A stretch of DNA of 64,000 bases from an uncultured Planctomycetia bacterium (GTDB lineage: Bacteria > Omnitrophota > Gorgyraeia > 2-02-FULL-51-18). The notes under the pieces are model-generated. The model worked only from the letters and a program-made list of their open reading frames with translations. It was not told the origin of the DNA and ran no database searches. The DNA lies in the NCBI GenBank assembly GCA_964642015.1, contig CAZXLF010000004.1, forward strand, positions 20,738 to 84,737, in the 5' to 3' direction. Shown in pieces: positions 4,721-59,400 of the stretch. The position numbers were made by a program, and so were the translations under genes. Numbering within the stretch: the stretch's first letter is position 1; each line of letters begins with the position of its first letter.

Positions 4721-4734
4721 TTTACTTTTGATGC

Positions 4735-5185: not shown

Positions 5186-5218
5186 TACTATTTCTTAACT
5201 AATTCAGCTAATCGATAA

Positions 5219-9838: not shown

Positions 9839-9848
9839 ATTAATTTCC

Positions 9849-12565: not shown

Positions 12566-12572
12566 TATAAAT

Positions 12573-16598: not shown

Positions 16599-16647
16599 GT
16601 TCATAACGCCTGCGTGGTCAATCGACGCGAAGATCAAAAAATTGGAA

Positions 16648-17526: not shown

Positions 17527-17629
17527 ATAGACAGCTCAAAACTTAAAAATAAAAAGTCAAAACAGAGATCAAAACAAAGACTATTGATCCGGCTTTTGTT
17601 CTGACTTTTAACTTTTCGGTTTTAACTTT

Positions 17630-18643
17630 TTATGGTACTTCAACCTCATCGAATATTCTTTTTACGATATCTTCGGAATTAAGCTGTTCAGCCTCTGCCT
17701 CATAACTCACGATCACGCGATGCCTCAAAACATCCGTACCAATGGCTTTTACATCGTCCGGGATCACATATCCGCGGCCTTTCATGAACGCATACGCCTT
17801 AGAAGCGATGTTGAGATAGATCGTCGCGCGCGGAGATGCGCCGTACATGATCAGCCCCTTCATGTTCTTGATCTTATATGTCTCGGGTTCACGCGTCGCG
17901 CATATGATGTTGACAATATAATTCCGTATCTTGTCATCAATATAAATATTCCTCACAACCGAACGCGCTCTCAATATATCGTCGGGATGGATCACTGGAT
18001 TGACCTTGATCGCCGCCGCACCGGCCATGCGGTTCATGATCTCGATCTCTTCATTTTTTTTAGGATAAGTGATCTTTAATTTCAGCATGAAGCGGTCCAC
18101 CTGCGCTTCGGGCAAAGGATACGTCCCTTCCTGCTCGATAGGATTCTGCGTCGCCATCACCATGAAAGGGTCTTCGAGCGGATACGTTTGACCGCCAAGC
18201 GTGATCTGTCTTTCCTGCATCGCTTCCAAAAGTGCACTCTGCACTTTAGCGGGAGCACGGTTTATTTCGTCCGCCAGCACGATATTCGAAAAAAGCGGAC
18301 CTTTTTTCGTTGTAAAATCCCCGGTCTTGGGGTTATAGATCAAAGTACCTAAAAGATCTGCCGGCAAAAGATCTGGTGTGAATTGAATGCGCTGAAATTG
18401 TGTATTGATCGCCTGCGCTAAGGTCTTTACGGAAAGAGTTTTTGCAAGACCCGGCACGCCTTCAAGAAGCACGTGTCCGTCCGCCAATAAACTGATCAAC
18501 AATCTCTCGACAAGATAATTCTGGCCTACGATCACTCGGGCGATCTCCGCCTGCAGTCCGCGTATCGACGAACTTTCTTTCGCTACCTGCTCCGATACCT
18601 GCTTCACGTCTACGTTCATCTGGACATTACCTCCCTGACTCAT
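17630..18643 (-). CDS. moxR: MoxR-family AAA+ ATPase. The ORF extends to 18688; the start was chosen at 18643, just after the upstream stop.
   Basis: Walker A motif LEGVPGLAKT. Conserved MoxR segments (IQFTPDLLPADLLGT, VMATQNPIEQEGTYPLPEAQVDRF). Confidence 0.85.
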   Translation of the reverse strand: MSQGGNVQMNVDVKQVSEQVAKESSSIRGLQAEIARVIVGQNYLVERLLISLLADGHVLLEGVPGLAKTLSVKTLAQAINTQFQRIQFTPDLLPADLLGTLIYNPKTGDFTTKKGPLFSNIVLADEINRAPAKVQSALLEAMQERQITLGGQTYPLEDPFMVMATQNPIEQEGTYPLPEAQVDRFMLKLKITYPKKNEEIEIMNRMAGAAAIKVNPVIHPDDILRARSVVRNIYIDDKIRNYIVNIICATREPETYKIKNMKGLIMYGASPRATIYLNIASKAYAFMKGRGYVIPDDVKAIGTDVLRHRVIVSYEAEAEQLNSEDIVKRIFDEVEVP

Positions 18644-18644
18644 G

Positions 18645-19031
18645 TTATTTGAGAACCTTAAACGATTTCTGGCCGAAAACATAATCATTCACATAGATCC
18701 GAAACTCATAATCTCCGGGATGATCAAACTTCACCGACATCAGATTAAAAACAAGCTCACAGTCGCGTGATTTATCCTGCACCCGGAAATCTTTAATCAC
18801 CGCGCGGTTCATTGATTTTTCCTCGGTTAGATCTACAAGCTCCAAAACAAAATCAAAGACCCCCTCGATCTCCCGGAATTGCACATAGACGCTCATGGCC
18901 GGGTGAGTGGTCGGAAAATTGGTGCCCTTGATCCGGTCGAACAATCCAATCAAAGTTCTCTTGTGCGTGCCATCCTCCACGATCGTCTGATCACAGAGGA
19001 GCATCGCTTTCAATATCGGTTTGATCTGCAT
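18645..19031 (-). CDS. hypothetical protein (128 aa)
   Basis: ORF with coding-like composition, directly abutting the downstream moxR and the upstream TPM gene. No family recognized. Confidence 0.45.
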   Translation of the reverse strand: MQIKPILKAMLLCDQTIVEDGTHKRTLIGLFDRIKGTNFPTTHPAMSVYVQFREIEGVFDFVLELVDLTEEKSMNRAVIKDFRVQDKSRDCELVFNLMSVKFDHPGDYEFRIYVNDYVFGQKSFKVLK

Positions 19032-26412: not shown

Positions 26413-29400
26413 TTAAGCGGCTTGTTCGATCATTTTCTTCATAAGCCGGAAGAATTTGACCGTCTGATCGATGGGGGCTTTTGTGATGGCTTTTAAAGCA
26501 AAATGTAAAACTGTCTCTATAGTTGCTTTTCCTTCCAATATCTGTTTCAACGTTTGCGTATCGGGCCTTTCGCCAGCCAACGTGGCATAAGCGTCATGGA
26601 ACCCTTCAGGAATATTCGCGAGGTCTATTCTTCCAGAATAGATCGAGACTTTCAGCAAGGCCCTGAAAGCAGGCACTTCGCCTTCTGCCAATAAATTCAC
26701 CGGCATATTGACGAAACCCTGCGTCAAACCTTTCTGAGCTACATCGATCTTGACATACGCCGCGTCTTTTAAGTTTTCCGGTATTTCAGTTATGAAAAGC
26801 TCCTTGGCTCCGGGGTAATTTAACGCCTGTTGGACCAAATGATCCTTACCACTCACCTTGAAGAAAACATTCTTGCCGTAATTTGATGTTTGAGCTTTCT
26901 TGATCTCGACGATCAGATTATCCAGATAAAACTGGAATGAAGGATTGTCCATCAGATCAAGATCGATTTCAGCGATTACGGCTTTATCGATCGAATTGGC
27001 CACGCCTTCCAGATCGGCATCCACTTTATTGTTCACAGCATCGACCATCGAACGAAGATCCTGAATGGTCAGTGCGGAATTAAATTTATCTGACTGTGGA
27101 ATTTGCGTATTTACCGCTTTCTTTGAAAGTTCAAGTTCGATCGGACTGATTCCTTTCGCTTCGGCGATCAATTTTGCACCGCTCCGTGACAACGTAAATA
27201 TATATGGCTCGTTTGTTTCCTCATTGAGCTGGAGAGATAATTTCCTACCGTCCACTTGCGGGAATGCGAATGCCACGCCCGAGAAAAATCCTTCAAGCTG
27301 AGAATGAATGTCCTGCTTCAAACCTGGTTTGAAATCCACGGTCGGCGTGCTGGCCAAGGGGATCGCATGAACAGTTGCCGGTTTTTGTTCCGCGAGCCTG
27401 GCCCCGCTGGTCGCATCTATATAATCCCTTTCTATCTCATAAAAAGCGGTGGAGTTTCTTTCGACCAAACTCCTGTAATCATCGATGATTTGATGACCAA
27501 AAGCTATTAATTCCCCTGTTTTACGGTAAAGCGATCTTCTGAGATAAAACCGAATAAGCCCGTTCAATCCGCTTAGACTGAAATCCGCCTCTTCTTCAGC
27601 GCGATCTCGCATGATCACAAATGTTCCGCGCAAGATCCTTTCGGCTGCGACAGGTTTTTCCGCCCAAACAGCGACATGCACAAAATCATTACGGCGTACG
27701 ATCAAATGGTGCAGATCTTCGCCAATACGCGGGTAAAGTCGGTCAACTTTAGCCGATCCGTCCAAAGCCTTCTCTGCGCTGACAAGAAGACTTCCCGCCT
27801 CAATAAAAAGATCCGGTGAAGTTGATGCTGATTTGCCTCTCACGATCACCCGCGCGCGATCGGCATATCCCTTAGCCACAAGATTATTTCCCTTGATCAT
27901 AAGAGAGGCTATTTGATCTTTATGAATTTCGCTGACTACATTTCTATCCAAAAATTCCATACCAAAACCTAAAAGCTCCTCAGCGTGCATTAAGTCATGA
28001 GTACCCTCAGATACGGGAATATCGATGCCGACATGCGCAGCCGCGACCGCTTGTGCGGCAAACTTAATGATCACCTGTTCAGATTCAGCTTTGACACCAT
28101 TTAAAGAATGATGCTCCTGTTCTAGCTGTAACAAATGTGAGAAAGTTTCTTCGGCTAAATGTAAACGATCATGAGCAACAAGATCAATGACCAAGTCACG
28201 TTGCCCGATGATCTGACGGCGCAATTCGTCTTCAGAAATTACCGGAGCTGCGGGCAGAGCTGAGACAACTGAGACAGGTTCAAGCGAAACCGTTTTTTCT
28301 ACTCGCGGTTTTTGCACAGCAGCTCTCTGACGAGGCGCGCCCGCTCTCAACTCCGCAAATTCTTGGCGCAATCGCTCGACCGTTGCGCTGACTTGAGCAG
28401 CGCGCTCATTACCTTTGGTGCCTAAAACTTTCCATACCTGATCGGGAGACAATGCCTTATCAGCCATCTCTTGTTTCATGATCCTGCTGATCACAGGATG
28501 ACTAACTTCTACACGGGGTCCGGAAAGAATTTCCCGGATCTTTGGATAAACAGGCGGCTGCTGATTTTTTATTGCTTGGATTTCCTGCTCTATTTTAGAA
28601 AGTGCTTCTTCAATAGCATCCAAACGATTCGCGATGATCTCAGATTGCCGCTCTTTCGAAATGCGGCCTGTTGATCCTTCCGTAATACCGGCTGCTTTGC
28701 GTGCCGTCTGGCCCATGCGCCAAAGTACTGCTTCCGTAAGCGTACCGCCCTGCGCAGCGGAACGGTCCGCGACGTTGATAATCGTCGGTTCGCCGCCTTC
28801 CGCCAAAATTTCTCTCACTAAACGTTCGGTTTCCAAACGATATTCTTCTTTTTTGGATATCGCAAGTCTTGCGCCCTTCACAGGCAATACTTCCTGTATT
28901 TTACTTACCGTCTTATTCGCATCGTTAATGGCTTGTTGATTGATAGATCTCAACACAGAAAAATTACGCAAGAAAACACGGCGTGACTCACGAAGTGCAA
29001 CCGACTCAGGTGATAACTCGAAAGAAGGGCTGAAAACCAGTCCTTCTTCGGAAAGCTGCCAGGAACCGGAAATATCGGAAACCGGGAATAGCACCTGAGA
29101 AACAAGCTCCGAAAGAAATTCAAAAGTCCCAAAATTCAGCTCATAAACATGCAGTAATTGATTGACCAAAATACGGAACGCTTCGGCAGTGATCTTAGAT
29201 GCGGTAAAATGCTCGATGGACCTTTTTTCGTCGTTCGGTAAAATATCAAATGTTCTTTGAAAATATTCATGCGCGATCACAAGCCGAAGAGCGTTGGGCA
29301 AGCTTCTCAGCACGTCCGAAGCGATATTTCTATCTATGACAATATTGGGTTCACGGAATATGCCCGGCAACAGCGCTTCTATCGAAGCAACGTGCGCTTT

Positions 29401-32400
29401 CACAAAATCTGTTATCGGGAAGACATTATTTCTCATAAGATTAAACAAAACATTCAAGCTGTCTTGAACTTCATCACTACTGACAGTGACCGCTTGAGTA
29501 CGAGGTACCTGACGCTCAAGCCAAAGCCGGTAATAGCTTTCAATCCTTTGATTAAGGGTCTCTGCGGGGAACTTTGTCAGATCGATCACGCTGGCTGCAA
29601 ATTCCATCAAAGCGATCATCCACATCAAGCCTTGATCGATCAGATAAACATCCTGCCAGATCAGATTTCCTATATCCGGCGGGATGGAAGGATTTTCCGA
29701 TAACCTGGCACCCGCAGGCATCTGCTCGGAAGATGGGCGTAAACGGTCCGTGTTCGCGTAAGGGAAGAAATCCGGTATCACGCCATTTTTAAGGTCTTCT
29801 TTGATGCCGTTCCAATAAGTATCTTTCAATAAATCCGCATGAACTTGTTTAAACGCTTCGACCAAATAAGGCGGAACGAATTTCATGGTTTCCGTCTCAA
29901 GAAAATCAGGCACAAACCAGTCGCTATCAGGAACATAGAACCAATCATCCAAATTCATCAGCTGGTCCGGATCATAAGAAGGCCACGGCGGTATGGACTT
30001 GAAGTTCATTTCAGGCAGGTCTTTCAGATGATCAAAATCATACAGCACAACTATCCCGGAAGGTGTGATGCCGAAATTCTTAAAATCAAATTCGCCTGTC
30101 CAAACACCGGCCGCCGCCAAATCCTTCAACGCATATCCAAAATCAATAAGGGCTTTTTTTCTGTCCTCATCTGTTCTGCCCGGAGCCTCCCAAAACACAT
30201 CGAACGGCGTGACCTGCCTTTGAACATAAACACGCTTCAATAAGACAACATCGCCGTTGACTATGACCATTCTAGGAGCCTTGCGGACCAAGTAGTCCAA
30301 TAGATCCGGCGGGAAGTTGGTTCGCGGGATCGAGAGATTTTGAAAAGACATCGCGTCAAGCATCCTTCCTACCCGATCCATATCATGGACTTTTTGATAC
30401 TGCTGCATAGTGAATGTGTGATCCTGGCGGAATGGATCTATCTTTTCTGATTCGTCTTTCATGATCTTGAAAACATAGGGAAAATGATCAATAGCCAGCA
30501 CTTCCATGACTCTGCCTCGAGTTCCGGGAGCAAATTTGAATTGCGTGCCGGGCACCTCTAAACGTTCATTCAAAGCCTTCCTGAATTCTGTTTTAGCCAG
30601 AGTCTCAAAACCTATGGATGAATAAATATCAGAAAGCGACCGCTTGGGAAGGATGGATTCCAAGAATTTGGCAAGCTCGCGGTGATGTTCCGCTTCCACA
30701 TGGAAATTGGAACGCACGTAGCTGAACAAACGGCCGACTTCCCCTTCTCCAACAAGCACCGTATCCGCTTCAACGCCGGTCTCTGTATTCAAGAAAGGAA
30801 TTGCCAATGCAATATAACCGTTTTGTGTCACGATCCTCCCGACAAGATACGCGCCTTTGTTTCTGTAGAAAATATTCGGAAAAAATTCTACCTTATATTC
30901 TCCGGGAATATTGTAACTCTGTAATTTCGATTCCAATTTGCGCGAAGCCAGCTGAACGTCTGAATTAAGATCGAAAAATAGGCCTTTGAATGGCAAGCCA
31001 TTGAAAATATCATGAAACAATTGATCAGTGGTTCCGCCAGCGGTTTTTTCATACGTGCGGTAAAAACCTGCCGGCTCGATAACATCGGGAAGTTCACCGT
31101 TACTCAAATATTCAATAGGTATATTTTCTTCAGAAAATACGCGCCTCATAACAGAATACAAGAAAATAAGTGCCAAATCGCTGTCGTAGCGACCTTTTAT
31201 CAGTGATGAATAAGATTTTTTAACGTCCTGCCACGAATCGTAATCCTTCACACGATCTGACAACAAGGTTCGCACCTCCCCTTCAACCCGATTCAAAGTT
31301 TCCCGATAAAACCGAAGTCTTTCATTGGCATCGCTTAACACTCCGTTCCATTCACGTTTTTCAAAACGTAATGCTGAACGGCCAGTGATCCACTTGAATC
31401 GCGAATAATAAGCTTCATAATCTTCGAGTAGTTTTTTAGCGACTTCATCGGAGTTTGCGGCGAGTCTGGCTCCATAAAACTTTTGTCGGAGATCCTTCCA
31501 ATACTGAGGATTAAGCAATGTAGTGCGGAATGTCTCACTGAAAACTGGTTTATACTTATCGGGGGCTAGCGCCAAGATGATATGTTCGGGAACAAAATCA
31601 TTCGGAGACGCTGATATCCAATCTTGATCCGGCACATAAAGGTCTGCGCCCTGACGCACAGGAATAGAAACAATTTCTTTGGGTAAAGATTCAACACCGT
31701 CCTCATGGTCATAATAGACCACTCGTCCGCTCGGAAGGATTCCGTAATTGAACAATTCAAGACCTCTTGGAAGATAACCGCTCTGCGCCAATTCCTCCAA
31801 TGCCCGGCCCAAATCAATAACAGCTTGCTGTTGTTTTTCTTCTGAAATTTGGGAATCATAAAGATAAAGATTTAATGGCGTCGCATACGGCTGAACGAAC
31901 ACATCCTTTAAGATCACCTTGTCACCGCTGACAAATACACTATTCGGCGCAAATTGTTCCAGTTCATTCAACAATTGCTCGGAAAAATGATCCCGTTCGA
32001 GCGGCAGTTGGGTAATGTGGAGCGTAGGCAAAAAACGAGGGTGATTGATCTTTTCGGCTTCCGTATATCTTGCGAGCACGCCATTGCGGCCGATAAAATA
32101 TTTTTTATCTGACAGATCTCTCGGCACTTTAAAAACATATGGCAATGAAGGCAACACGAAATCTATCATTGCCTTACCACGCACACCAGGAGCAGGCAAA
32201 AATCGTTCGGATAGATTAGACAATAAATGATCATACAAAGCCGGTATAAATATATTTTCTTTCAACTGACCAGGCTCTAACTTCACAAACCCCGGTTCGG
32301 CAAGCCTTGCGCCGCTCCGCCCCTGCTCTGCGATGATATGTTCAACGATATCATTTCTTGTCTCATGGATCTGATCGACCAGCAATTTGCCGTACGCGAT

Positions 32401-35400
32401 CGATAACCGTATCTCAAAACCTCCATCGATCAGCCCTGTAAAAATATTTGAAAGAATATTCAAATTTAAGCGAAGCTGATTCCCCCGCAATTCGGTCAAA
32501 GTTAACTGGTTCAGAACCTGAACAAGTCTATAAATATCCCTTGGGTTGACCGCTAAGTTAATAAGCCAGCTACGCGCTTTGTCCAATTCTAAACTGAGAT
32601 TTGTTAACACCTGAGCAGTTTCATTTGGAATAAAAGGATGCTGTAACAATATTCGTATCGTTCTAAAGTAATTTGAAGCCAAACTCAAACGCTGTCTTGG
32701 GCCGCTTAGAGGTTCTTCAGCCAGTCTTGCGCCTACAGATAAAGTACCTGCCAGCACCGGTAAACGATAAAAATCGTCGTCACTACGCAAGTTTAGACGC
32801 GACGATGCGATCTTTTCAGCGAGAATATTTCCAGTCTCAACGGTTGGTTCCGAGCTAGCCCGCACGATCTGTGTTTTTACCCTGCGCCCGCTGTCTGTTT
32901 TATTAAAAATGATCGTAATAATTACCTGCTCAGAATTACCCGGGATCCTTTCCCTGATAAGCTCCACTGTAATCGGAGAATTAGGTATCTTTTTGTCTAT
33001 CGCTAACCGAGCACCTTTAGAAGACGCTTCAAGTCTTACCTGTTTATATGCTCTCTCAAATACATCCGCCAGACCACTTCCAAGCGCAGAGCGGACTTTT
33101 TGAAATTCTTCCTCATATTTCCCTTCAGCGTGCGCAATACTCGAATGTTCAAAATCGATGAAGCTTACAACCGGCATTGTATTAGCATCGCGATGTACAA
33201 AGATATGATCTTTTTTGAGCTCAAAAATATCGCGTTTCGCTTTTCTGATCAGGTCCTGGTGTACTACACCATAATTGTGTAGTCTGCCCAATGCCAGACC
33301 AAGCGCTTCAACTTCATCAGCTGTGATCTGCACCGTACCTATACTAAAACCATCAACCTGATCTAGAATGATGGCTTCTTGATCACCGGGCAACCTAATC
33401 CGATCGACTCTTGGGCCTATGCTTTCAATACCCTGATGATAAGCGCGGTGAGAAGCTAGAAATTCGGTCTTTAATTTTTCTTCGAGACCCGTCCCGTAGG
33501 TTTTTATGTAAAAGACAATCTGGCCTTCGCGTCCTTCTATTCGGATCCTGTATTCCCAAACGGCATCATCGATGCGCCGTTCGGACAATTCCGTAATATT
33601 TTCCAGATCCGTCAAACCCAAAAATTCAAACACTCTTTGATTTCCGGCTCCGAACCGGAGTTTGAATAGATCCTTCGCTTCTTCCCCTTTAAGTAACGCC
33701 AAGCGCGCACCTGAGGTCATTTCGTCTAAAGATTGAAGCTGTGCCAAAGCGTTATACAGCAATCCATTTTCCTGAAGCAAAACCCTGGCATTAGGGTTTA
33801 CCAATCCGATGGTTGCGTCACTGGCAATATTCCCGATCAATTCGTTCAATTGCTGAATCCATTCACCGAGGCGCATGGATCTCTTCAATGTTGAACGGTA
33901 ATTTACGGCAAACTGTTTATAAGAGCGTCCTATATCACCGGCCAAAACATCGATCTGGTTCTCCGTCTTGACCAATTGAGGCTTCCCCTGGAGTCTAGTA
34001 AAAAGATATTTAGCTTCCTTCAGCCAATACGAGGCAACATCCAAGCGGACAGTATAAGCAAACTTGTTATTAGATTTTGATGCCACATCGGACCAAGCGG
34101 TAAAGACACCTGCGAAATCGGAAACAACATCAGCTTCAGAAGTTTTGGAGATGGATGAAACCCGCGTTCTCAGCAAATCCCATGAAGTTTTTAAATAGTC
34201 ATAGGCTTTTTGTTGGTCATTTTCATCGATAGCGTCTGCGGCTAAAATAATGTTTTGCCGGGCCGATCGCAGATCGCGGATGATCTCCTGATTATCGGTC
34301 TGTTTTATCAGTATCTGCGTAATCGCTGAATCGATCCTGGGCGAGATCCAAACAACGAGTCCGTACTTTACCTGATCAAATTCGTGTTCGCTTGAAAGCC
34401 GCGCGCCGACAGTGTCGTTAAATAGTTGGCCGGAAAAACCCGGAACAAAATCCGAAGGAATCCTGTAATTATGAATCGTCGGCGTCTGGAAAGGATTATG
34501 AGTTTCATTCATGATCGCAAGATTAGCCTGCCGGCGTAATATTGAGGCGACATCCGCCTCAAGTTTGGTGCGGACATCTAAATACTGCCTGGACCATTTA
34601 AAAGCGTGTAAAAATGTAAAATCTTCGACTCTTTTCCGATCGAACGAATCCACGAACGAGATGTGCGTGCCGCCTCTGAGATATTTCCAATAATTGGATA
34701 CATATCTTCTTGATTCCGCGGTCAAAGAAGCGAGCGCCTCTTTTTGATGTCTGGCCTCCGGAGATTCGCCGTTCGGGCCGGCTTCCTGTATTTTTTCTTG
34801 CAGTTCCGTAAGGCGGCCCATGATTTCATCCCGCGACAAAACATCAGGCCCTTTTCCGATCTGCGAAAGCCTCCACAGTACACGGTAGTAATTCACGACC
34901 ACGAGCGCCTTTAAATCCAAAGACGCCGCCAACCCATAAAGATCTAAAAAGATATCCAGATCGCTTGAGACACTACTGATATCACCAAAAAAAGCGATCA
35001 GTTTGTATTGCACAAGCATGTCTAGCTCTTTCCAATACAACGCGGAAGTCACCTGATCACGGTCCTTATGCGAACTGATACTTTCAAGGTCTCTAATGAA
35101 CTCTGCCAGGTCCTGTCGGTCATACGGTGTCGTGAACCGTGCGTCAGGAGCTCCGACAAGACGAACCAATTTTCTTTTGAAATCGTCAAAACGCTTTTGA
35201 TACCAGCTGACGATAAAAAGTCTTCCGGCCACTTCCGTATAAAGCAGATCTTCAGATGCCTGGATGATCTGCCTTTTAACATCGGAAGGTACAGAATCGC
35301 TAAATTGACGGGATTTTAGATATTGGTTCAATCTTGGTTTGATGAATTCATCAAGAGATTTGCGCACGGTTTCTTCTGTGTCCCAATTCCTAGCGTCCAT

Positions 35401-38400
35401 GGCAACAATAAGAACCGGCAATTCAAGCTTCAGAAATCCAATGAACGGTGAATCCGTCTGACTGATGCCCAAAATTAAATACAAACGAAGCCTTCCCAAT
35501 TGGGACGCCAAACGAGGTTCAGTGTCTTTAAAATACTCTTTTGCCTGCTGGATTTGCTGTTCGGTCGCAAAAAGTTGATTGTATGCAGGAATATTCCGAA
35601 GACGAGCCGGATCAACCTTTCTGACTCCCAGATAAACTTTGGCATCAGATTCTATCTTCCTGGCTTTCTGTGCTTTAAACGCATCAAAATGGTCCACGGC
35701 GTCCGCCCACTGACGGTAATAAGCCTCAAATTCTTGTAACCATGCCTCGACTTCCGTCAGCGCAGAACCATTATTTTGAAAGCGGATAAGCCGTCCTTTA
35801 AGCTCAGCGATATCGGGAACATTGCCGGCATCATATCCGGCTGTGATAAGAGCTATTCTGACGCGCTTTTCATTGGCTTCGATCTTTTCCATCTTCTGCA
35901 TCGTCTGCTCGAGGGACAAGCGCAACCATTCAGGGTATAGAGCACTTTCAGAAAAATGTTCAGTCGTTGATAGCCGCGCGCCTGACGCTGGAACATTTGC
36001 GCTCTTGCTGATCTTCAAACCTTTCTCTTCTAAAAATCTCCTTAATTCTTCCGGCTTTGATGTATTAAAGAAAAGAAAGAAATGATTTCGTCCCACTTCT
36101 TCCATGTTCTCAAGGCCGACGCGATCCATACTCACCGCACCGATCAGACCTTTTAACTGCATTTCAGGGATATTTCTTCTAAGGAATGACCGAAAAGCCC
36201 TGAATCTCATATGGGCATCGGTCACTTCAAAAGCAACATTCTCATTCTTGAAATAATGCAGCGCATCTTCCAGTTCATAATCAAGCTTCGCAAGATCCGA
36301 TTCTTTAAAACCGCCGGCGAATTGTCCCTGTCCGGATAGCTCGACATATTTTCTCGACGCATTCACAAGCCTTCTCCAATAATCGCCTTTGTTGATCCTT
36401 TCAAATATATTCTTTCCGTTTTCGGGATCATAAATCTTCCAAACAGCAACTTGCAGTTGCTCTGAAGCAACTAAACCTGAAACAGTTTTATAAGAGATGA
36501 CCTGTTTCCTATTCGGGTCATAACCTATCCGATAGATCAAACGCATCGCAGAATCGAATGAGCCGACTCCGTGAAGTTTTCTTCCGTTCTCTTCGACGGA
36601 ATTCTGATCGTCAACAATGATCGATTGCAACACCAATTGTTCGGCACCTACTCCGGTAAGGCCGGTGTAACGTTTTTTGTAGGGATCGATTCGTTGTAAA
36701 ACTTTTTTCAGCAGAACAATATCATCGGTGATCTGATGAGGACTCCCGCCCAATTTCCTGATCTGGCTCATCTGATCCTTAAATAAATCGGAATACAACG
36801 TCCGGTTCTTGCCTATGGTCAACTGGATTTTAAGCGGCTTCTGAGCAGAATTCTTAAGCTTGATCGTGACCATCCGACCCAACGCATTAGCTTCTTCATT
36901 TTTTTGGATCATATCCACGTGATAACCTAAATTTCCGAATGACTCTGTCAATTTTAGAATGAAAAGAGGCAGATTATGCTCATAAACAGACCAGAACCTC
37001 TCGATATCCTGATCATGATCAAAAAGCAACGCAAAATCAAAATCCGCGTTATCATCGATGAACGTGCTACGTCCCCTGGATCCTGTCTGAATAAAGCGAT
37101 GACTGCCTGCCACGATCGATCTTAATGACTGATCTAGCGCCCGAACAACGTGCCTATTCTTTTGGCGATAATCCGCTGCAAGTCGAGCTCCGGAAGCGAC
37201 CAAAGTAACTGCGCCTTCAAAATCCTTACCCAATCCTCTTAAAGGCACTTGAATGCCATTATCCAGAATGATCACACCATATTTTTCTGAACCGATTGCT
37301 CTGACTTCATATCTAAAGAAAACACCTTCTGTTTCGAATGTTTTGCTGTCATTTTTAAAAGATATCTCGATCTTTATCCGTTGACCTTTTTCCAACAAAC
37401 CGGAATTTTGGACAACAGCGGAAAGATTGAGCGTCGGATTCGTTTCTGCTAAACGTGCGCCGTTAGCTTGAGGGCCGGTTTCAACAATGTGCTTCATTTC
37501 TGCTAAAAACCATTCTAATTCGTCGAGCTGCTGGTAGTTTGACGCGATAACAACCGTGTTTTCTCTGGCGTCTAAAACCAGATCATGCGCTCTATACAAA
37601 TAAGCCTTGGCCTCTATGATCAGTTGGTCAGCTTTTTTGACATCTTGAACTTCAATAGCTTCTCTTAAAACGGGAATGATCGACTGGAATGCTTTTAACG
37701 GTTCAAGATAGTCTTGCGATGAAACACTAGCAGAAGCTGGTTCATCCAAATTTTTTTCTTCCTCTGGCTTTGGTAAATACCCTAAACTCCTGAGTTCCTT
37801 CTCGTATTTTGTTTTTTGCGAAGGAGTTAATTCTGCCAAAGACGTAGAACCGACCCACTCAAAATTTCCTTCAGCAGTTTCATAACCGCGGCGAAGGATC
37901 GCTTGGGGCATAAAAGAATTGTCGAGAACAACTATTTCAAGTCCTGGCCGTGGTATAGAATCATGTTCGACGTTCACAAACCGAATCAGCAATGGTTTTT
38001 CATGATAAGACAAAGGTGTGCCCACATGAACTCTTTGTCCGTTACGGTCATTCAGAACGTGCGTCGGCACGCTATCTTGTCTGCGGCTGCGACTCGAGAC
38101 CTCAAGAACAGACTGTTGTTTTGCCTTGGATACAGCAAAACTTCTAAAACGTCTGGTCGCTTCTTCCCAAGGGCGCTCAAGCTCATGGGTTTCGGGATTG
38201 TAATATTTGCTTGAGATGAATGCCCTATTCTCTTTTTCTTTGGATGTAAACTTGCCGCGATTGGCGTCGTCATCTTTGGTCCGATAAATATCAATGCGGG
38301 ACACTTCGGCCTGAGAGTTGACAATGATCACTTCCGAGGGTATCTCATCCAGTTTTGCGCGAAATTCATCTCCCAATCGCAGTGCGATACCTCGCGTCAA

Positions 38401-50400: not shown

Positions 50401-53400
50401 CATCGCATCATATCTTCTGGGATCTCGAATACCTAAAACAGCATAAGTAACAGAATGGGCCCGCCCATACGGCCCATTAACAAGCGTATAAATATTTTTT
50501 ACCGTGATGCGTCCACTAGATGCTTCGGCAACTTCGCGCACCGAAGGCAAATAACCGGGATCATTTTTTTCTGAAACAAGCTGCGCAGTGATCCTTTGAA
50601 TATCGACGACCCATTGCTCGGGAGCTTTCGCCATTCTAATTCCCAAATCTTCTTCAGGATCGATATGAACGCCTTTTGCGCGGTAACGGTACAGCAAAGT
50701 ACTGAGACTGCCCGTCGTGATTTCTCCTTCTGATGCTTCTTCGATTTCGACCGGCGTCGGGCGGTAATTGGGGTCACCTTTTTCCACGGCTATTTTCCTG
50801 GCTATTTCCCTGACACGCTCAACGATCTCGGCTGCCTGGACTCCTCGCATGCCGACAGAACTATAGGTGATCCCTGCTGGTTTAAGGCGATTGAAGAGCC
50901 TCCAGATGAATTTTGTATTCACTTTATTATCGGATGCTTGCACGATCTCATCGATAGTAGGCCGATAATCAGGTTTGGATCTCTCATGTCGGATCTGATC
51001 AACCAGCGTTTTCAAATAGTCGATCCATTCAACATCATCATGCATAATCCCAGAGGGCCCCGTATTTGGAGCGTAACCGTAAGGAATTTTGTTATCCGAC
51101 ATCGCCAGGATTATCCGCCGTTCCGTAAGAGGATGAGCATAACGCTTGGAAACCTCTACAACACGGCCGGGCGTAGCGTTTACACCTTGCGGCACTTGAG
51201 ATGCAAGCGCATTGAACAATCTGATCCACTCTTCACGGCTTTTATTCGCTTGAGCCAATACCGCATCGACGGCTTGATCATCGCTGTTGAATTTATACTC
51301 CAATTTCTGCGCTTCTTTTCTGAATTCACCGCGCGCCGCATCAAAACCCTCTCTGTCAACCTTCGCAATAGCTTTCGAACCCAGGTCAATATACTTTCTC
51401 AAAGAAGCATTTTCTTGCGTAGCACCCCCGACATTATGCTCCGAAGCCCAATGAAGAATATCGGCGAGCCTTAATTCGTCCTCGATCATGGTGTCATACA
51501 TGATCTTTCGGGATTCATATTCGGACACGATGAACTGAAAATTCCTCAATTGGGCAAGATCAAACAAGAGATCAATGACTTCCGTTTCTTGCGCATTGAA
51601 TGATGCATCAGGGCCCGTCTGACGTTCATGCCGCACTGAAAGGAATTCGGCCAATTCATCAGGAACAAAGCGCTCCAAAAAGGTATTTCCTTCCAAATGA
51701 TCCATGCCCTGGAAAACGCCGGGAAAACTTCTCCTTGCCGTGCGTGCCTTGACTTGCTCTTCTACGGCGCTAAGCCTGTTGCGATAGGTGCTCAAGATGA
51801 CCAAGCCCGCGACGCTCTTATTTTCATTGAAAACCTGAACCTCCTTTTGGGCAGCAAGAGATTCATCCAATTTGATATCGTACCCGCGGGTTCCTACTTG
51901 CGCGACTATGGTGATCGTGAACGGTTCGCCGGTCCTGTGTAAGTTTTGCTGATCAGCTTTATTATTGAGACCTGTCACAGTTCTGACGGACGCTTTAGTT
52001 TTTAAAAACGGTTTCTGTTCGTCCAGCTGCAGCAATAAACCCACGATTTCTTTGGCTTCTTTCGGTGTTTGGCAATTCACGATGATCGGTTGCCCTGTTC
52101 CATAGATCGCCGAAACAGCCGATACAAGATCGTTGATCTTTTTATCCCGCGTAAGATAATACCGATTCGGCCAATTTTGGCGGTTATCCTCGTGTATACG
52201 CTTGAAGTCTATGAGCTTAAGTCCGTAATATTGGATCAGGAAACCTCTCGTGAGATCATCAGCAACTCCCGTCACTCCGCTTACGAAACCAAAACGGTTA
52301 TAGGCATAAGCCATTGTGATCAAAGATAGTGGCCGGCTTTCTAAGCGGACGCGGACCGCTTCATTTCTCTTTAAGCTTTCTTTGGCCTCGATAAAACTCT
52401 GAATGCCCAGCTGAAGACGCACTTCATTCTCCAGTTCTCCGGTAATTCGATTACGCAGTATGACTAAACCGTCCTTGACGACATAATTCACGTCATCGTT
52501 GTAAATTGCATAAGCAACCATGGCCGCTTGAAGCAGTTCCGCCACATTGGCATGACTCAGAAAATCATTCGCTTTTCCATTTCCCATGTGAGACTTGAGC
52601 GCAGGTTCGGAAGTCCGAAGCAGATTTTCGAAAGCGGCCATAAGTTCGGTATTCTTACGAGGAGTCAACACAACGCTTTCGCCTTTGATAACGTAATCTT
52701 TCGGCGTAATATTTGCTTCGAGAAGTTGATAAGCTGTTTTATAGAATTTTTCAATTTCAGGATGTGCCGGCCCCCAATATTCGGATGAGATCTGCGGTTG
52801 ATTTAGAACGCCGAAAAGAGGTGTATCCGCCTCTTCTATGAATATCGCCGGCTGAGAAGGATGGATCTTGTTTTTCCGGGCCTCGAACCAATCCTCTCTC
52901 CAATAGTGAGTAAGCTCCGAAAAAGGCCCGCATACGATATCTCCGTCATGGAATGCCTTTGAAATCGATTCAAATCTATCGGTAGTTGCATCGCCGTTTT
53001 TTACACTTTCTAAATGCGGATAATGAAGTGTCCCATTCTTCTTGGCCACAGTCCCTTCAAAAGGACGCTTATTCAGGATCGCGAAAACCCGCAAACCAAG
53101 CGGAACCATAATCACGGACATTAGCTGAGAATCTCTGGCGGTAAGACCGTTGTCCCAATCATGTACTTCTACTTTCGTGTCGTTCAAAGCTTTAAGATAA
53201 GAAGCGAGCGCTACGGTAAGAGTTTTACCTTCGGATGTCGGCATGATCACCAATTGATGGTTCTTCAGCAAAAGGATCGCGGCCGCTATCTGATTCTCAG
53301 TCGGCGAACCCCCAATATGGGCGGCGATCAATGAATTAACGTTCGGATCATGCGAAAAAGATTCTTTTTTGGAATCAAATTTTACTTCGTTCATATCAGG

Positions 53401-56400
53401 GCCTCGCAGATCTAATGATTCGCCCCCATTCTGAACAGTCACAGAATAATTCTTAGGAAGATCCGAGTAGACTATTTTTCCTTCTTTAAGGATCACGGTG
53501 GCGCTGATCTTTTCCGGCAACTTCAGCAAAAATCGGGTGTGAGGAGAAGTGATCCTGGACGTCCGTTCACTGAATAAAGCAATGGCCTCGGCCAACCCGT
53601 CCTCATCCGGTTCTTTGCCTCTCCAAATTGCCCTCAAAGCGACTCCTTTATCCAGCAACGCTTTGTCTGTTTGCCCATGTAGGGCTTTCTCATAGGTCTT
53701 CGCTTTTTGAATGATACGCTGTACATCTTCTTTCTCCGCCGGAGCTAAAAAAACTTTTTCGGGAGCAGCATGGCCAGTCTTCATTTCTCTTGCTATGTCC
53801 GCTTTCAATTTTTTAGATAAAACTGAAATGCCGTCTTGTGTCAAATGCTCTTCGGATATCTTTCTTGGTGCATTTTTTGCTAGTCTTGCACCCTCATTTT
53901 TAGCGACCAGCCGGTCGAGTTGATTTTGAATAGACTGGATATCATTAAGGAGGCGCTGTTTCAATTTTTCCTTGGACGTCGGCGAGTTAAATAACCGCCC
54001 GGCTTTGACCATTAACTCCAGCCGGGAAACAAGAAGAGGGTTTCCGGAAGAATAAACTTTCGTGTTCGTTTCATTAGGCAGATCAACATTGAATAAGCCT
54101 AATTTAACGGTGCTTTCGGTCACTTCGTTCGTCTGATCATCGAAACGATAAAGATAATAAACATCAGAGTCTGGTCTGCGTTTGACAACAACAGCAATCC
54201 CTTGAGGAAGCCTGCCGAACGCCACAAACTCGGCCTGATTCATATCTTCCACATCTTTTTTCAGAAATGCATAATTTTCTCCGATATTGATCGAGCCCTT
54301 TTGCTCTATTTCCGACCGTTTATTGACATGAGAGATCAGGAATTGAGCCGCTTTCTTTTGATGGGCCAATTGCTTTTCAAATGTATCGAATGGATTGAAT
54401 GGAGAAGCATTTTCTTCCTCATGAGCTATTGTCGCAGTAGCTCTCCAGATGATAAGCTGTTCGAAACCGCCATGCGAAAGCCACCAATACGCTCCGCCGG
54501 CGGCTAATACAAAAACACTGATCGATATCAAAAAAACGCGCTTAACAGTATTCCTAGCCAACCGAGCGCCGAGATATCTTTCAAATTTTATTACCAAATC
54601 GAGTGTCAAAGATTTCCCCTGCAATTGAAATAAGTGATCCTGGGCTTGATTCAGTTGTTGATCCGCGTGACCGATCCATGCTTTGACTAGAGCAAACGTA
54701 TCCAATCCTTGAATATCGGGAAAGATCTCGATTAACGTTTTAAAAAGATTGGGCAAGAGAATGGTCATTAGCTGGATCGAGTGAATATCATGGGATAAAT
54801 TCATCAGAGATCGGCTGAATACATCGAACGCTACTGTCGCAGGCAGTTCGGTCTTCTTCTCACTCAGTGTTTTCAGAACGGACTGAATGTCGTTGTTGAT
54901 GCGATCGATGCTTTCAAAATAATGATGAACCAGTCCTCGCGAGCTAAGTTTATAAACTAAATCCATGAAACTAAATGCGCTACCCACATGCAACGTGAGA
55001 TTCCCTTGCAACATGTCACGCATTTCTTTTTCATTTAAGAAAGATCTGGCCTGGCTCAAATATACAGCAGCAGAATCCACAGAAATTCTTATATTGTCGA
55101 TAAGCTTACCGGCTTGGCTTAGTAATTGTTCTTTATTGAATTCTCCGCCCGCTAAACGCGCGCCGGAGGAAAAATCATTGTTCTTAACTATAATGTTGTA
55201 CCCCAGCCATGCGGGCTCTGAGCCGCCGGCCTGCGCGTTGACTGTGTACTCATTAACACCTTTAGGAAGTCGGTATTTAAATCGGATGCTGGGATGATCT
55301 TCATAGGCTTCCACAAACGTAGCGGGATATGACCCCCATTCACCGGGCAATTGATTGCCGGTATTATCAACTCTTGGATGATAAAACGTAAAAGCGACTT
55401 TATGCGCATCCATCTTTCTATCAAGATTGACGGTCCAATAAACTTCTCCGTTCTGATCGGGAGTTTGCGCACCATTTTCCAGTTCGGGCCAAGGGTTTCC
55501 AAAACTTCTGATCTCAGCGACGTCCACGACCCCGCGCAAGTTGGTCAAAGCCCTCGCCAAACGCGACAGCGGTCCATGCAACCTGAGCAATAGATTCCGA
55601 TCGTCCATGGAAAGAGAAGCGTCTTTGTTGATTTGCTCTACCACCTGGTCAATCATGGTCCTAGAGTCATGAATAAGATAGGCGTATTTGTCCCTGAAGT
55701 ATTTGTCCGTGAATTTGGCATCCTGCGGTTGGGCCTCAATATCTTTGGCCAAGTCATCCAATTGGTCCCAGGTCTTCAAAATGGGCATTGTGATATAAGG
55801 GACGTCGAAAATTTCGGCGGTCGCATTTTTTCTGGTTTTTAATATGGATTCTATTTCTTCATAAGCGCCCTTCAATATTTCTCTGGCATAAGAAGCCTTC
55901 TGCTGCAGCGATCTCGGCTGCTTGAAAAAACGCCGGATATCCAGGCCTTTTCCAGGAAAGGTCACTTGGATAAAAATAAACCGCTCGGTATCCTTTTTGT
56001 AAAAGACAAGCCACGATCGGCGGGTCATATTCAGCGGCGCTTCTTTGGATAAAGAGAATCTCGAAGCGACTGATTCCGGGATCTCGAATATCAAACCAGG
56101 CCTGTTGCGATAGTTTGTCGCGTCATGGTGAACCAACGCATCAGACAACGGCCTCCAAACAGAACTTTCCGCTGAAAGAACACGGTGATTTTGGAGAATG
56201 CTGTTCAAATTTTTTGATTCGCGATCAAGAGAGATCCCCATGTATAGATTTTCGGACCGATTGGAGGGATCTAGATATTCTGAATGTTCATATTCTTCGT
56301 AATGACGGATCAGATTGTTCACTGATTCCTGTGAATCGATCACGGGAGGAGGAGCAAGCTCCTCGTCACTTTCTGCTGCTGCCAAACGCGCACCGGACAA

Positions 56401-59400
56401 AACCGGCAGGATTTGATGAGAACGGCGAATAATGATTTGTTTTAAAAATTCTTCATCGCCGGGCTTGATCCGGTCTTCCAATCGTCGCTCTACAGTTTTT
56501 AATTCAGCCTCGTTCTCGAAATAAAATGGCTCATAGCCATTCCGAATCAGAAGGAAATTCGCCAACAACCAAGCCAAACGATGATGTCCGCTCGCCGCGT
56601 TGCTGAGCGTGTCATTTCCGCTGGATTCTATGATCTGATTAAATCCGGGCCTTCTGAAAAAAATCTGATACGCGGCGATATAAGCATATAGTTCTGCCGC
56701 CATATTTGGCGCACGATCAGGCTCTTTAGAAGTTTCGTTGACCAGATAAACGAGTGAATTATAGGGCCAAGCCATCCTGAGCTGTCTTTGATTGCTCTGA
56801 AGATAATCAGGGTTGGTGTCATCACCGCGAAGCTTTTCATACAATGTCACTATCTCCGGCCAGGTTATGTCTTGGATCTTTTGATCCGCATTGGTTCTAA
56901 CTAAAAGAGAGTTTAAATAGTTCACGGCTTCCAGAAAATGCGGATTGCGGTTGTAAATTTTCTCGGCATCGACCGTAACCTGCCCGTTTGCCAAACGAGT
57001 GCCTTGTGCAATGATCCGGTTTGATGCGAATTCAAAACCTTTTTGAGTCAAAGCATATGTGCGGATCGGTACCGTTTTCATATGCTGATCCACTGAAGGA
57101 ACAGCCCTGATCGCTTTATGCGTGACATCCACGAGATCGATCCATTCGTTTTTCAGTGCTTGCGATAATGCCTCCTCAAAACTCAAAGTAATCAAAATAA
57201 GGTTAGGCTGGAACAGCGTCCCTACGACAGCACTTTGCCGCACTAAACTGATCACAAGTTTTTCGGCGGTCCACTGTGTTTCTGTCAACCTAGCGCCTGA
57301 CTGACCAGCCGATGCACCGTTTTCGGATTGGCTCCTGTCCTGTGTCGTTTCCGCAAGTGTCAGAAGGTCACGAAGCTGCTGTTCACTGAAAGGCGTGATC
57401 TGTATGTCCCTATTTTCCAAGAGGCGTTTTATATCTTGGAAAGCCGCGCGATTCAAATCTTCTTGCCTGGGTAAAAGATAGAAATGCACATTGAAATCTT
57501 TTTGCAGCTTGTGCAAACGAGACAGCGCTTCTTCATTTGCGAAAAAATTCCTCAAATCGTTCAAATCTCGGTAAACCAGTTCCACAAAACCGGCTTTTTC
57601 CGGGATTTGAGCTGTGGACCATTCATGTATATACACGCGTGTGCGTAATTCGTGTGTTGGTTCCAATTCTTTGACCGGAGACAATCGGTCAGGAGTGATC
57701 GAATGCAATACAGCCAGATCAAGCGGATTTGCGCGATGGATATCGTCCAATAACTGCAGGATATGTCTGTAATTTAAATTTTCTTTTAGTTGTTCGGCAT
57801 TATAGTAAATATAGTGGCCGTTATTTGAGCCTGTGTTCGGTCCTCGGATAATTAAAAACGGTTTTTCTTGAGAGCCGATCTCGAAGGTCTCGCCCAAATC
57901 GCCAAATTTATAGGTAACGGAATTATCGGATACAGCTATAGCTCTCACCTCTCCTGTTGCCTTCGCTCGTTCAAGATGAGCAACCAAATTTTCGATTGGT
58001 TCCGCCGATTCCGCCAGCCGAGCGCCATTCCTTTGCAAGAATGAATTCAGTTGATCAAGCGCTTTTCTCAGATAACCATCGTCACCGATCAAAACTAGAT
58101 GTTCTTTTTTTAGAGCATGCGCATACTCATCTGTCATCAGACGTTCGACAATGAAGTTAACCTGATAGTGAATACCTTGCGCCATATCGTCATACATAGA
58201 TTCGGTGGCTCTGTGTTCTTCGTAGTCATCGATCAACTCCTGAAGCTGATGGCGCAATGTTTCCAATTCAGCCGCGATGGGCGCCGTCACCTGAACGCCG
58301 GACCGTTTAAACGCCACAAGAGCCGCGGATAATTGATCTTCTGCCGATTCCAAATTCGACAAGGGAGGATTTTCTGCAAACCGCGCTCCGGTCGGTTTTA
58401 AGTTCAACGCGCCAAATTCATTTTTAAGCATCTCCACAACATTTAATCTCACGCCATCTACCAAGGCTGTCGCTTCGGCGGCCGGCAGAACACCCCATTG
58501 ATCACGAGGATGCTCTGTGGAGGCCGATTTTGTACTGTCTGGCTGATTTAACAAAATATCTTCGTACTTCTTTATGTTAGTTTCCTGAAGAACTTGCGGG
58601 ACAATCGAAACATATGAGACGTTCCGTTCTTTAAGCAACGATTTCAGATGCTCGGTATGATAGCCGCCGGCGACTAGGACGGCTTTCTCGATTTTTTCCT
58701 CATCCATTTTTTTAAAAAGATTTTTCAGGAATGCTTCGTCTCTTTGCCTTGTGAGAGCATAAAATTCGGTGGCTTTTTGGAACGCCTCATCGTAGCCGGC
58801 ATCCAGGAAAAGAGCGTCTTCATAATGAGATGCCAGATCCATGATCTTTTTATTCAAGAAACCGCTGATTTGAATGATATTAAAGCTCTGCGGATCTTGG
58901 TCCAGTGCTCCGAAGTCCTGTGTGGTGAGGTTTAGATTAAATAGGCGCTTTAAAATTTCACAGCAGCCGTCAACCTGATGAAGTCTTTTTTCATCCGCGG
59001 TCCTCGCCAATGATTCATAAATCAATGATTCTAGGTTTTCTTTCTCTATGATGACTTTCTCGGGATTTACTTTTTCAGCTTCTTTCAGATAATCGAAATA
59101 TTTAAAGAGTTCGGGATATTCGTGAGCATTCTTGAGCTTCTCTTCCAAAAGCGCATAGAACGCCTTGGCTTCTTTGTGCTGGAACGCATCGATCGCAAAC
59201 GGATTATTGAGACCCTTCAGGTTTTGTTCGGTGAGTTCGACTTGATCTGTCTGAGAAAGTGATGAAAACGCTTTGATCTGTTCTTCGTTGGCTTTGCTAA
59301 AATCGATCGCAGCTTCTTTTTCTTTGATCTTCTTAAGCGCCGCCAAATAAGGGAAAGATTCAACAACATTCAGACCCATCTTCCTTGCTTCGTCGTTCAG

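Follow-up and report, generated by a model that had tools for sequence, protein, structure and literature searches.

A GARL pentapeptide at the module boundaries of an 11,236-residue Omnitrophota protein is a candidate processing site of a cellular polyprotein

Whether the giant proteins of Omnitrophota work as single chains or as cut pieces is an open question: the authors of a 2023 study speculated that such proteins may be cleaved, stated that the cleavage points were unknown (10.1101/2023.11.21.568195), and found analysis blocked by that lack. We addressed this question in a 64,000-nucleotide stretch of DNA from an uncultured Planctomycetia bacterium placed by GTDB within Omnitrophota (assembly GCA_964642015.1, contig CAZXLF010000004.1, positions 20,738 to 84,737; hereafter the window), in which one uninterrupted open reading frame (ORF; 26413..60123, minus strand, TTG start as listed) encodes a giant protein of 11,236 amino acids (aa). 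A first reading of this DNA (the original prediction) had counted about 30 instances of the pentapeptide G-A-R-L-[A/S/T] at domain junctions of the giant protein and had offered two explanations, namely recurring proteolytic processing sites or a structural clasp between modules. The best-supported reading of the results described below, which we hold to be somewhat probable, is that the motif is a proteolytic processing site of a cellular polyprotein.

A regular-expression search of the translation returned exactly 30 G-A-R-[L/F]-[A/S/T] sites (29 GARL and one GARF, with Ala at position 5 in 24, Ser in five and Thr in one), spanning aa 579–10907, or window positions 58389 down to 27391. Composition alone predicts 0.10 such sites, and the maximum among 2,000 shuffles was two, so that the recount sharpened the original figure and placed it far from chance level; the flanking residues listed originally agree with the sites found here, and the nucleotide coordinates were right to within a few bases. 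GARLA is by a wide margin the most over-represented 5-mer of the giant protein (23 copies versus 0.03 expected). Furthermore, all 30 copies of the GAR tripeptide lie inside a motif, leaving none outside versus 3.2 expected. At the nucleotide level, all four bases are present at each synonymous third position of the 30 motifs, and both codon families are in use for Arg (CGN in 20, AGR in 10) and Leu (CTN in 19, TTR in 10); GGC and CGG are mildly in excess within the motif, and no other codon is over-used. Because synonymous codons vary this freely, the motif is conserved at the level of the peptide, as had been argued originally from the variety of its codons.

The motifs were then compared with modules assigned by Pfam scans of the giant protein, run in three chunks and again segment by segment. 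Wherever a boundary could be examined (AceK, GNAT, the dehydrogenase and three kinases), the claim that motifs sit between modules was borne out. A complete AceK, for which the two Pfam models are covered nearly end to end (1–296 of 302 and 2–255 of 256), is bracketed by motifs at aa 9551 and 10138 with at most 15 residues to spare at each end; the GNAT module (aa 6080–6218) is bracketed by motifs at aa 6069 and 6234; and the dehydrogenase model ends at aa 4721, 16 residues short of the motif at aa 4737. Motifs likewise delimit the alpha/beta-hydrolase module. Self-comparison uncovered three paralogous protein-kinase-like modules (segments S13, S17 and S24), each with a motif at both ends; the family that they form, of protein-kinase-like fold, is confined to these giants. 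Just four of the 31 segments have a paralogue within the giant protein, Pfam gave no family assignment for most other segments, and its segment-wise scans detected no protease family by sequence. One segment matched the SecA_DEAD, PP_bind and P-loop_SecA models and not SecA_SW (scaffold/wing); ordinary SecA proteins dominate the matches to it, at only 23–27% identity. In a hydropathy scan, the hydrophobic segments of the giant protein were limited to the N-terminal stretch and one strong internal transmembrane (TM) helix, which starts six residues past the motif at aa 1852, in keeping with the original prediction that a TM helix follows a motif. With RNTVKR before it, this helix (aa 1863–1881) looks from its sequence like an N-terminal signal or anchor. 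The true N-terminus (aa 1–45) has a K/R-rich n-region, a short hydrophobic core and the ending ...LSYA|NP, for which the consensus among relatives is 'A-x-A-NPEL'.

Relatives were sought with a profile of the three kinase modules in an exhaustive HMMER search of 1.84 billion representative proteins. This profile was used in place of one built from the 30 junction windows alone, for which planted-motif tests showed 10–30 copies to be undetectable at library scale. A word-index search with aa 6238–9274 returned no relatives, and exact-8-mer scans of genome and metagenome collections with aa 5168–10141 found no locus. The kinase-module profile matched only 52 of the 1.84 billion proteins, most of them 2–7.6 thousand residues (kaa) long. 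Seven of these carry GAR-type punctuation, with up to 21 sites per protein: P0127 (6,920 aa, no Cys) has 21 GAR[LF][AST] sites, P0166, P0130 and P0168 use GAR[ML]A, and a GAR-type motif is also found in P0126 and P0135. Alternative tags, over-represented as strongly as the GAR motif, occur as RSE[VM]R (17 copies in P0122), RSELR (11 copies in P0125), D-x-A-M (12 copies in P0143) and SSPV or SSPA (P0153, P0146 and P0162). Mapping of the kinase module in all 52 matches placed these unrelated tags (GARLA, RSE[VML]R, SSP[VA] or D.AM, by lineage) at the homologous junction, a few residues ahead of the conserved F..F(G) with which the module opens and just behind its C-terminal Y-x-x-G. Judged by sequence, then, the kinase-module junction is homologous and its tag is lineage-specific.

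Conservation of the punctuation is accompanied by conservation of an N-terminal domain of ~540 residues, hereafter the head. It stands at the N-terminus of 16 giants at 22–34% identity, the RSE.R class included (P0168 is N-terminally truncated), and in 24 further database proteins at 25–66% identity (two annotated as Candidatus Omnitrophica, one as Planctomycetota), several of which carry GARLA directly after it. A scan of GTDB species-representative genomes with a head alignment (A4) yielded 63 head-bearing loci, mostly in metagenome-assembled genomes titled Candidatus Omnitrophota or 'uncultured Planctomycetia', as are the assemblies that hold the closest heads, with up to five paralogues per genome. 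Downstream of most of the 63 heads, repeated GAR[LM]A sites (as many as 18 in ~3.8 kaa) are found together with near-zero cysteine; every further GAR[LM][AS] in the flanking DNA sits in a giant cysteine-free ORF, and none sits in an ordinary gene. The search of other giant ORFs proposed originally has thus produced dozens of Omnitrophota-type giants with the same head and punctuation. Within these related giants, GAR outside the motif is modestly depleted (27 observed versus 46.7 expected, the lowest of the six G/A/R permutations). Synteny with the window is seen on a groundwater contig, L002, in the order pyruvate:ferredoxin oxidoreductase, head gene, IlvD, exonuclease, two small ORFs, M15. 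The head encoded there is 59–66% identical to the window head, the whole protein measures only ~2.5 kaa, and four GARLA and one GARMA are retained among cargo without detectable similarity to that of the window, a comparison from which we read the architecture as conserved head, fast-changing cargo and conserved punctuation.

Pooling 305 sites from 35 related proteins extended the consensus. G-A-R is invariant and position 4 varies (L 239, M 56, F 6, V 2, I 2). Only small residues occur at position 5 (A 232, S 52, G 11, T 10), Ser (23%) and Ala (17%) lead at position −1, position −2 is rich in Ser and Pro, and positions +1 to +3 are rich in Ala and Glu. The hydrophobic fraction drops from 0.32 to 0.16–0.25 across −5 to +4 of the 305 sites, a dip that places the tag in a short exposed linker. 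Of 67 TM-like segments inside the chains, 10 start no more than 10 residues after a motif, versus 3.1% for random positions (P = 4e-5), often with a K/R-rich stretch between motif and segment; since they start directly after motifs, the segments of the chain behave as if they had N-termini of their own. A reading of the motif as a signal peptidase I site (S-G-A|R) was rejected, position −1 relative to the motif Gly (−3 for signal peptidase I) not being consistently small.

Paralogues within one genome share one variant profile of the tag. In CAYODQ01, 53 of 57 sites distributed over five genes are GARL; the four genes of CAYJVC01 hold 14 GARA and nine GARM; CAZBAY01 has 18 GARM and 10 GARL; and the five genes of JBLINS01 have no GARxA and show a weak PRM/RMT-type enrichment (5–6 copies each), which we regard as a candidate tag only. 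The four heads of CAYJVC01 belong to at least three lineages, the nearest relatives of which use GARL in other genomes, and the heads nearest to that of the GARL user L013 belong to GARM users. Because the variant follows the genome irrespective of head lineage, the recognising factor appears to be genome-wide, which favours action in trans and weakens the notion of a private cis specificity for each head.

The head was modelled with AlphaFold2 on 25 sequences (predicted local distance difference test, pLDDT, 80.9; predicted template modelling score 0.74), with motif 1 lying in a low-confidence tail. Its predicted fold is alpha/beta with a parallel beta-sheet core, as in the TIKI/Ere/TraB/ChaN superfamily, relative to which it carries a helical insertion of roughly 300 residues. 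Ten divergent heads share, without variation, the polar residues D50-A-H52, E80, E133, R421-D422 and H449, counted in a sequence that begins at aa 41. The TIKI-family catalytic set of two His and two Glu is defined, on the structure of RRSP, as E3900, H3902, E3930 and H4030, joined by the conserved basic residue R4001 (PMC6254334). The order of residues matches between head and RRSP, the H-to-E spacing is 28 in both, and the R-to-H spacing is 28 in the head versus 29 in RRSP; the first acid of the pattern is Asp in the head versus Glu in RRSP. This Asp, the large insertion and a sequence profile that goes unmatched set the head apart from the TIKI superfamily as described. The head is, we consider, quite probably a hydrolase of the TIKI superfamily whose predicted active site is intact, and we infer from this that it may be a peptidase that cuts the punctuation.

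A different head occurs in giants punctuated by D.AM or SSP[VA], which share a second conserved N-terminal domain of ~340 aa that is unrelated to the TIKI-like one ('LPxPG...LKGIKVHPDNP...PRKYFSGG' in P0143, P0153, P0155, P0159, P0167 and P0171), is followed directly by the first tag and has no match in Pfam. In other Omnitrophota giants, that N-terminal place is reported to be taken by C39 and S8 peptidase domains (West-Roberts et al., 10.1101/2023.11.21.568195). The TIKI-like, second and C39/S8 heads together suggest, as a general rule, an N-terminal peptidase paired with its own punctuation.

The giants are also nearly free of cysteine. The giant protein contains six Cys (0.05%) versus 0.96% in 31 neighbouring ORFs, and the same disparity runs through the family (0.09% over 106 kaa of giants versus 0.98% in 96 kaa of flanking ORFs). 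Such a near-absence suggests membrane passage in an unfolded state, or activity away from the reducing cytoplasm, for the chain or its products. Taken with the signal-like N-terminus and the embedded SecA-like motor, the depletion suggests export in an unfolded state.

We propose that the polyprotein is ordered as a signal- or anchor-like N-terminus, the conserved head and about 30 cargo modules, many of them complete enzymes, with each junction formed by a short hydrophilic linker that bears the tag [S/P/A]-[S/A]-G-A-R-[L/M]-[A/S]. The tag would be recognised by a site-specific endopeptidase, which would divide the chain into individual proteins and whose specificity would be set per genome, since all paralogous polyproteins of one genome share a tag variant. 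TIKI-family hydrolases include the site-specific endopeptidases TIKI and RRSP. The head, being common to all members with an intact N-terminus and having a TIKI-family predicted fold and catalytic pattern, is the best candidate protease, which would act in trans probably as well as on its own chain. Leu or Phe at the N-terminus is destabilising in bacteria by the N-end rule. As a cut after Arg would leave just such N-termini, the favoured scissile bond would be the one after position 4 (Leu/Met), leaving Ala, Ser, Gly or Thr. The chain would be exported unfolded, and delivery into another cell would be a speculative fit for ATP- and NAD-dependent cargo. Processing fits the observations in that the segments are whole free-standing enzymes, anchor-like segments follow motifs, and the head has a peptidase-type predicted fold; cleavage itself, the protease, the bond and the compartment are what we infer.

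Several results weigh against this proposal. With regard to the head, no match to the TIKI-clan Pfam families TraB_PrgY_gumN, Cofac_haem_bdg or Erythro_esteras was obtained at E ≤ 1 for the 10 heads, its profile found nothing relevant among PDB sequences, its top Foldseek matches are Ere proteins at non-significant E-values of 0.2–0.4, and the TIKI superfamily also holds esterases and haem binders. Heads with intact residues stand on giants without detectable punctuation (P0129, P0144, P0148, P0123 and P0124) and also occur as stand-alone proteins of 580–840 aa. If the N-terminus is a signal peptide that is cleaved off, the head would lie across the membrane from the ATP/NAD-dependent cargo. 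Tracking of the tag variant with the genome is equally compatible with an unlinked protease. Finally, a proteome-wide avoidance of GAR, which looked suggestive in the window (none versus 2.4 expected), was rejected on a larger sample, in which ordinary flanking proteins show no avoidance (35 observed versus 41 expected).

The alternative that survives best, an unlikely one in our estimate, holds that the tag is a recognition site without cutting, the chain staying intact and its junctions being bound by a partner, such as a chaperone or translocation checkpoint (for instance in concert with the SecA-like motor), a docking protein that arranges the modules into a mega-enzyme, or an enzyme that modifies the invariant Arg. 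Lineage-specific tags, genome-wide variants and exposed linkers are evidence of a co-evolving factor and not of proteolysis specifically, a SecA-like module is embedded in the chain, and such proteins are interpreted as multi-enzyme clusters anchored in the membrane, with no appeal to cleavage, in a 2026 preprint (10.64898/2026.06.07.730766). Against binding alone, the segments are complete free-standing enzymes with natural-looking termini, signal- or anchor-like hydrophobic segments come directly after motifs as they do at N-termini, the sole module common to all members with an intact N-terminus has a peptidase-type predicted fold, and the restriction of position 5 to small residues is typical of a P1' residue or a mature N-terminus; nor is a candidate binding partner known.

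Also unlikely, and ranked next, is cutting by an unlinked trans protease of the producer, or cutting after delivery into prey or host, with the head having another job, for instance as effector or esterase. In addition to the tracking of variants with genomes over head lineages, this alternative accommodates heads without punctuation and stand-alone heads, one of them in a McrBC/STAND-type island, and the different head of the D.AM and SSPV giants. It has to contend with the head being present, catalytic residues kept, at the N-terminus of every member with an intact one, with the N-terminal peptidase rule suggested by C39 or S8 domains at that position elsewhere, and with the window, in which no protease gene linked to the giant-protein locus was found.

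The second of the two original explanations, a structural clasp or helix cap kept for the folding of module boundaries, draws on the strict placement of the motif at boundaries and is nonetheless very improbable, as modules of unrelated folds lie next to the motif, other lineages have unrelated tags in its place at homologous kinase-module junctions, its flanks are hydrophilic, Ser/Pro-rich and otherwise unconserved, and its first copy falls in the low-confidence tail of the head model. A recognition site is favoured over a clasp because the motif is kept with unrelated cargo, tags are swapped at homologous junctions and variants are genome-wide. Of the original pair, therefore, the processing-site half stands as far as recognition is concerned (cargo-independent, lineage- and genome-specific tags), with cleavage conditional, and the clasp half does not. 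An origin as a by-product of recent duplication or as a DNA or RNA signal (recombination site, internal start or RNA processing) has next to no probability, the mild GGC and CGG excess being set against codon diversity at every synonymous position, CGN/AGR and CTN/TTR families included, which rules out a DNA-level repeat, against position-4 Leu codons (CTT, CTC, CTA and TTA) that are not start codons and so rule out internal initiation, and against unrelated flanks with paralogues for only four of 31 segments.

Returning to proteolytic processing, known systems offer partial precedents. The original prediction had likened the giant protein to multi-effector toxins, in which autoprocessing typically takes place after Leu. 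Like the MARTX toxins (multifunctional autoprocessing repeats-in-toxin), it is a very large bacterial protein with arrayed enzymatic domains, unstructured linkers and many (here predicted) cleavage sites per chain, and the MARTX effector RRSP shares the TIKI fold predicted for the head. The MARTX processing-site consensus is 'small-Leu-small' (PMC2900308); the tag places Leu or Met before a small residue in a hydrophilic linker, but with an invariant Arg before the Leu, and is a strict motif of 5–6 residues with invariant G-A-R, versus Leu alone. The junctions number about 30 versus 3–5, the cargo is of housekeeping type (AceK, glutamate dehydrogenase), and there are no adjacent type 1 secretion system genes. 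MARTX toxins are marked by glycine-rich RTX-type A/B/C repeats at both termini and by an InsP6-activated cysteine protease, Peptidase C80, with a catalytic Cys-His pair, which carries out their autoprocessing. Pfam scans of chunks and segments found no RTX or RtxA repeat families and no Peptidase C80 in the giant protein, and none of its six Cys lies in a protease-like context. The toxin comparison therefore stands as analogy only.

Viral polyproteins (potyvirus NIa/TEV, picornavirus 3C, nidovirus Mpro) are cut at a consensus cleavage heptad that is lineage-specific and co-evolves with an in-chain protease. The giant protein resembles them in having one ORF with many enzymes, a short lineage-specific consensus at every junction and a candidate in-chain protease. 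It differs in that its gene is chromosomal and cellular, among ordinary metabolic genes, its candidate protease is of TIKI fold and neither chymotrypsin-like nor papain-like, and several paralogous polyproteins with rapid cargo turnover are found per genome. Gingipain/HagA of Porphyromonas, Kex2-processed repeat proteins and cyanobactin-type precursors of ribosomally synthesized and post-translationally modified peptides are cut at a recognition sequence repeated with each unit. These release adhesin domains or short peptides, with few units or one repeated, and not ~30 different full-size enzymes, and their recognition sequences are unrelated to GARLA.

A further comparison is with the Omnitrophota giants described in 2023, in which a divergent SecA was reported with DEAD and preprotein-binding domains and no scaffold/wing, along with numerous transmembrane regions (10.1101/2023.11.21.568195). 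The giant protein is placed in the same phylum by its GTDB lineage and shares the SecA module without scaffold/wing, TM segments and many unrelated enzyme families, among them GNAT, kinases and sugar enzymes, the described giants having peptidase domains near an N-terminal signal peptide; at 11 kaa it is the smaller, its hydrophobic segments numbering only one or two. In word searches, neither the 2023 nor the 2026 preprint turned out to mention a junction motif, processing of a polyprotein, a domain of TIKI type or a depletion of cysteine, and literature searches found no prior description of the GARLA/GARL tag. Polyprotein processing is a known principle; what would be new here, and we put this forward with moderate confidence on sequence evidence, is its use by a cellular organism, the tag and the candidate protease likewise being new.

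Punctuation that varies by lineage and genome supplies the concrete candidate cut points that were missing, together with a named candidate enzyme, and gives a rule for dividing giants into units for structure and function prediction. If the chains are cleaved, they would amount to a cellular polyprotein system on a scale so far tied to RNA viruses, in which each gene yields about 30 products, a genome holds several such genes and cargo turns over rapidly behind a conserved head, and family-wide cysteine loss would point to export of the whole enzyme set. We tentatively picture a virus-like strategy in which a cysteine-free chain of dozens of enzymes, often encoded by several tandem genes per genome, is cut at a genome-specific peptide by TIKI-fold heads or, in other lineages, by other head peptidases with tags of their own, perhaps during export. 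A mixture of kinases, acetyltransferases and metabolic enzymes may thereby be set free beyond the producer or within host or prey cells, and such export would matter for understanding interactions between these ultra-small, probably host-dependent bacteria and other cells. Motif–protease pairs could also serve as orthogonal processing tools.

Table 1. Features of the giant protein in window coordinates, in order from the N-terminus.
Feature	Position (aa)	Window	Strand	Remarks
Signal-peptide-like or anchor-like N-terminal region	1–45	59989..60123	-	judged from sequence
Conserved head domain	~46–546	58486..59988	-	TIKI/erythromycin-esterase/TraB/ChaN-like predicted fold, large helical insert
Motif 1, T-GARFA-E	579	58375..58389	-	head/cargo junction; model tail pLDDT<50
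Motif 2, GARLA	700	58012..58026	-	
Motif 3, GARLT	943	57283..57297	-	
Motif 4, GARLA	1244	56380..56394	-	
Motif 5, GARLA	1654	55150..55164	-	
Motif 6, GARLA	1852	54556..54570	-	then RNTVKR, then TM helix
Internal TM helix	1863–1881	54481..54537	-	starts 6 residues after motif 6
Motif 7, GARLA	2078	53878..53892	-	
Divergent SecA-like ATPase module	2265–2802	51718..53331	-	Pfam
Motif 8, GARLA	3483	49663..49677	-	
Motif 9, GARLA	4006	48094..48108	-	
Glu/Leu/Phe/Val dehydrogenase module	4217–4721	45961..47475	-	Pfam
Motif 10, GARLA	4737	45901..45915	-	16 aa past dehydrogenase model end
Motif 11, GARLA	5049	44965..44979	-	
Motif 12, GARLA	5164	44620..44634	-	
Kinase-like module 1	5168–5444	43792..44622	-	self-comparison
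Motif 13, GARLA	5445	43777..43791	-	
Motif 14, GARLA	5510	43582..43596	-	
Alpha/beta-hydrolase module	about 5793–6015	42079..42747	-	Pfam
Motif 15, GARLA	6069	41905..41919	-	
GNAT acetyltransferase module	6080–6218	41470..41886	-	Pfam
Motif 16, GARLA	6234	41410..41424	-	
Kinase-like module 2	6238–6463	40735..41412	-	self-comparison
Motif 17, GARLS	6464	40720..40734	-	
Motif 18, GARLS	6966	39214..39228	-	
Motif 19, GARLA	7555	37447..37461	-	
Motif 20, GARLA	7645	37177..37191	-	
Motif 21, GARLS	8048	35968..35982	-	
Motif 22, GARLS	8573	34393..34407	-	
Motif 23, GARLA	8805	33697..33711	-	
Kinase-like module 3	8809–9036	33016..33699	-	self-comparison
Motif 24, GARLA	9037	33001..33015	-	
Motif 25, GARLA	9131	32719..32733	-	
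Motif 26, GARLA	9271	32299..32313	-	
AceK-kinase-domain-only module	~9306–9548	31480..32208	-	
Motif 27, GARLA	9551	31459..31473	-	
Complete AceK, regulatory + kinase/phosphatase domains	9562–10123	29755..31440	-	Pfam
Motif 28, GARLS	10138	29698..29712	-	
Motif 29, GARLA	10417	28861..28875	-	
Motif 30, GARLA	10907	27391..27405	-	

Two further segments were characterized by eye. Segment S21 (window 35983-37179, minus strand) carries a Pol-beta-type nucleotidyltransferase motif, GSRGRSTFIDDNADFDFALLF, with a weak match to TIGR03671 (E 0.079), and in segment S04 (window 56395-57285, minus strand) a Fic-like helix, HHRLAWLLANFLLIRNGYEP, lacks the canonical catalytic motif.

Among the related loci, the stand-alone heads are those of L003/L004 (10001-11743, 580 aa) and L005 (10001-12523, 840 aa); one stand-alone head adjoins genes for an AAA_16 STAND-type NTPase, nSTAND3 and McrBC, in what looks like a defence island. 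At 11 loci (L017, L025, L027, L031, L034, L037, L043, L063, L064, L066 and L067), the upstream 10 kb hold a second giant, cysteine-free and GARLA-punctuated ORF just upstream of the head-bearing ORF on the same strand, as tandem genes. In L002, the head gene is split into ORFs of 323 aa and 2,191 aa by a short stop-introducing insertion (8050-8200) that resembles a small repeat or an element of the miniature inverted-repeat transposable type, and similar odd peptides interrupt the heads of P0123 and P0164.

The neighbours of the giant gene in the window are ordinary chromosomal genes, encoding IlvD, a 3'-5' exonuclease, an M15 dipeptidase, a MoxR/DUF58/BatA-D aerotolerance cluster, a glycerol-kinase-like FGGY protein, transketolase, PanE and pyruvate:ferredoxin oxidoreductase. 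The Bat/MoxR aerotolerance-type cluster (window 9849-18688, minus strand) is complete, with MoxR AAA_3, DUF58, an ORF without assignment, BatA-VWA, BatB-VWA, TPR, BatD and TPR members. An ORF of 286 aa (61337-62197, minus strand), which has no family match and lies wholly inside the pyruvate:ferredoxin oxidoreductase gene (61391-63154, plus strand), is probably spurious.

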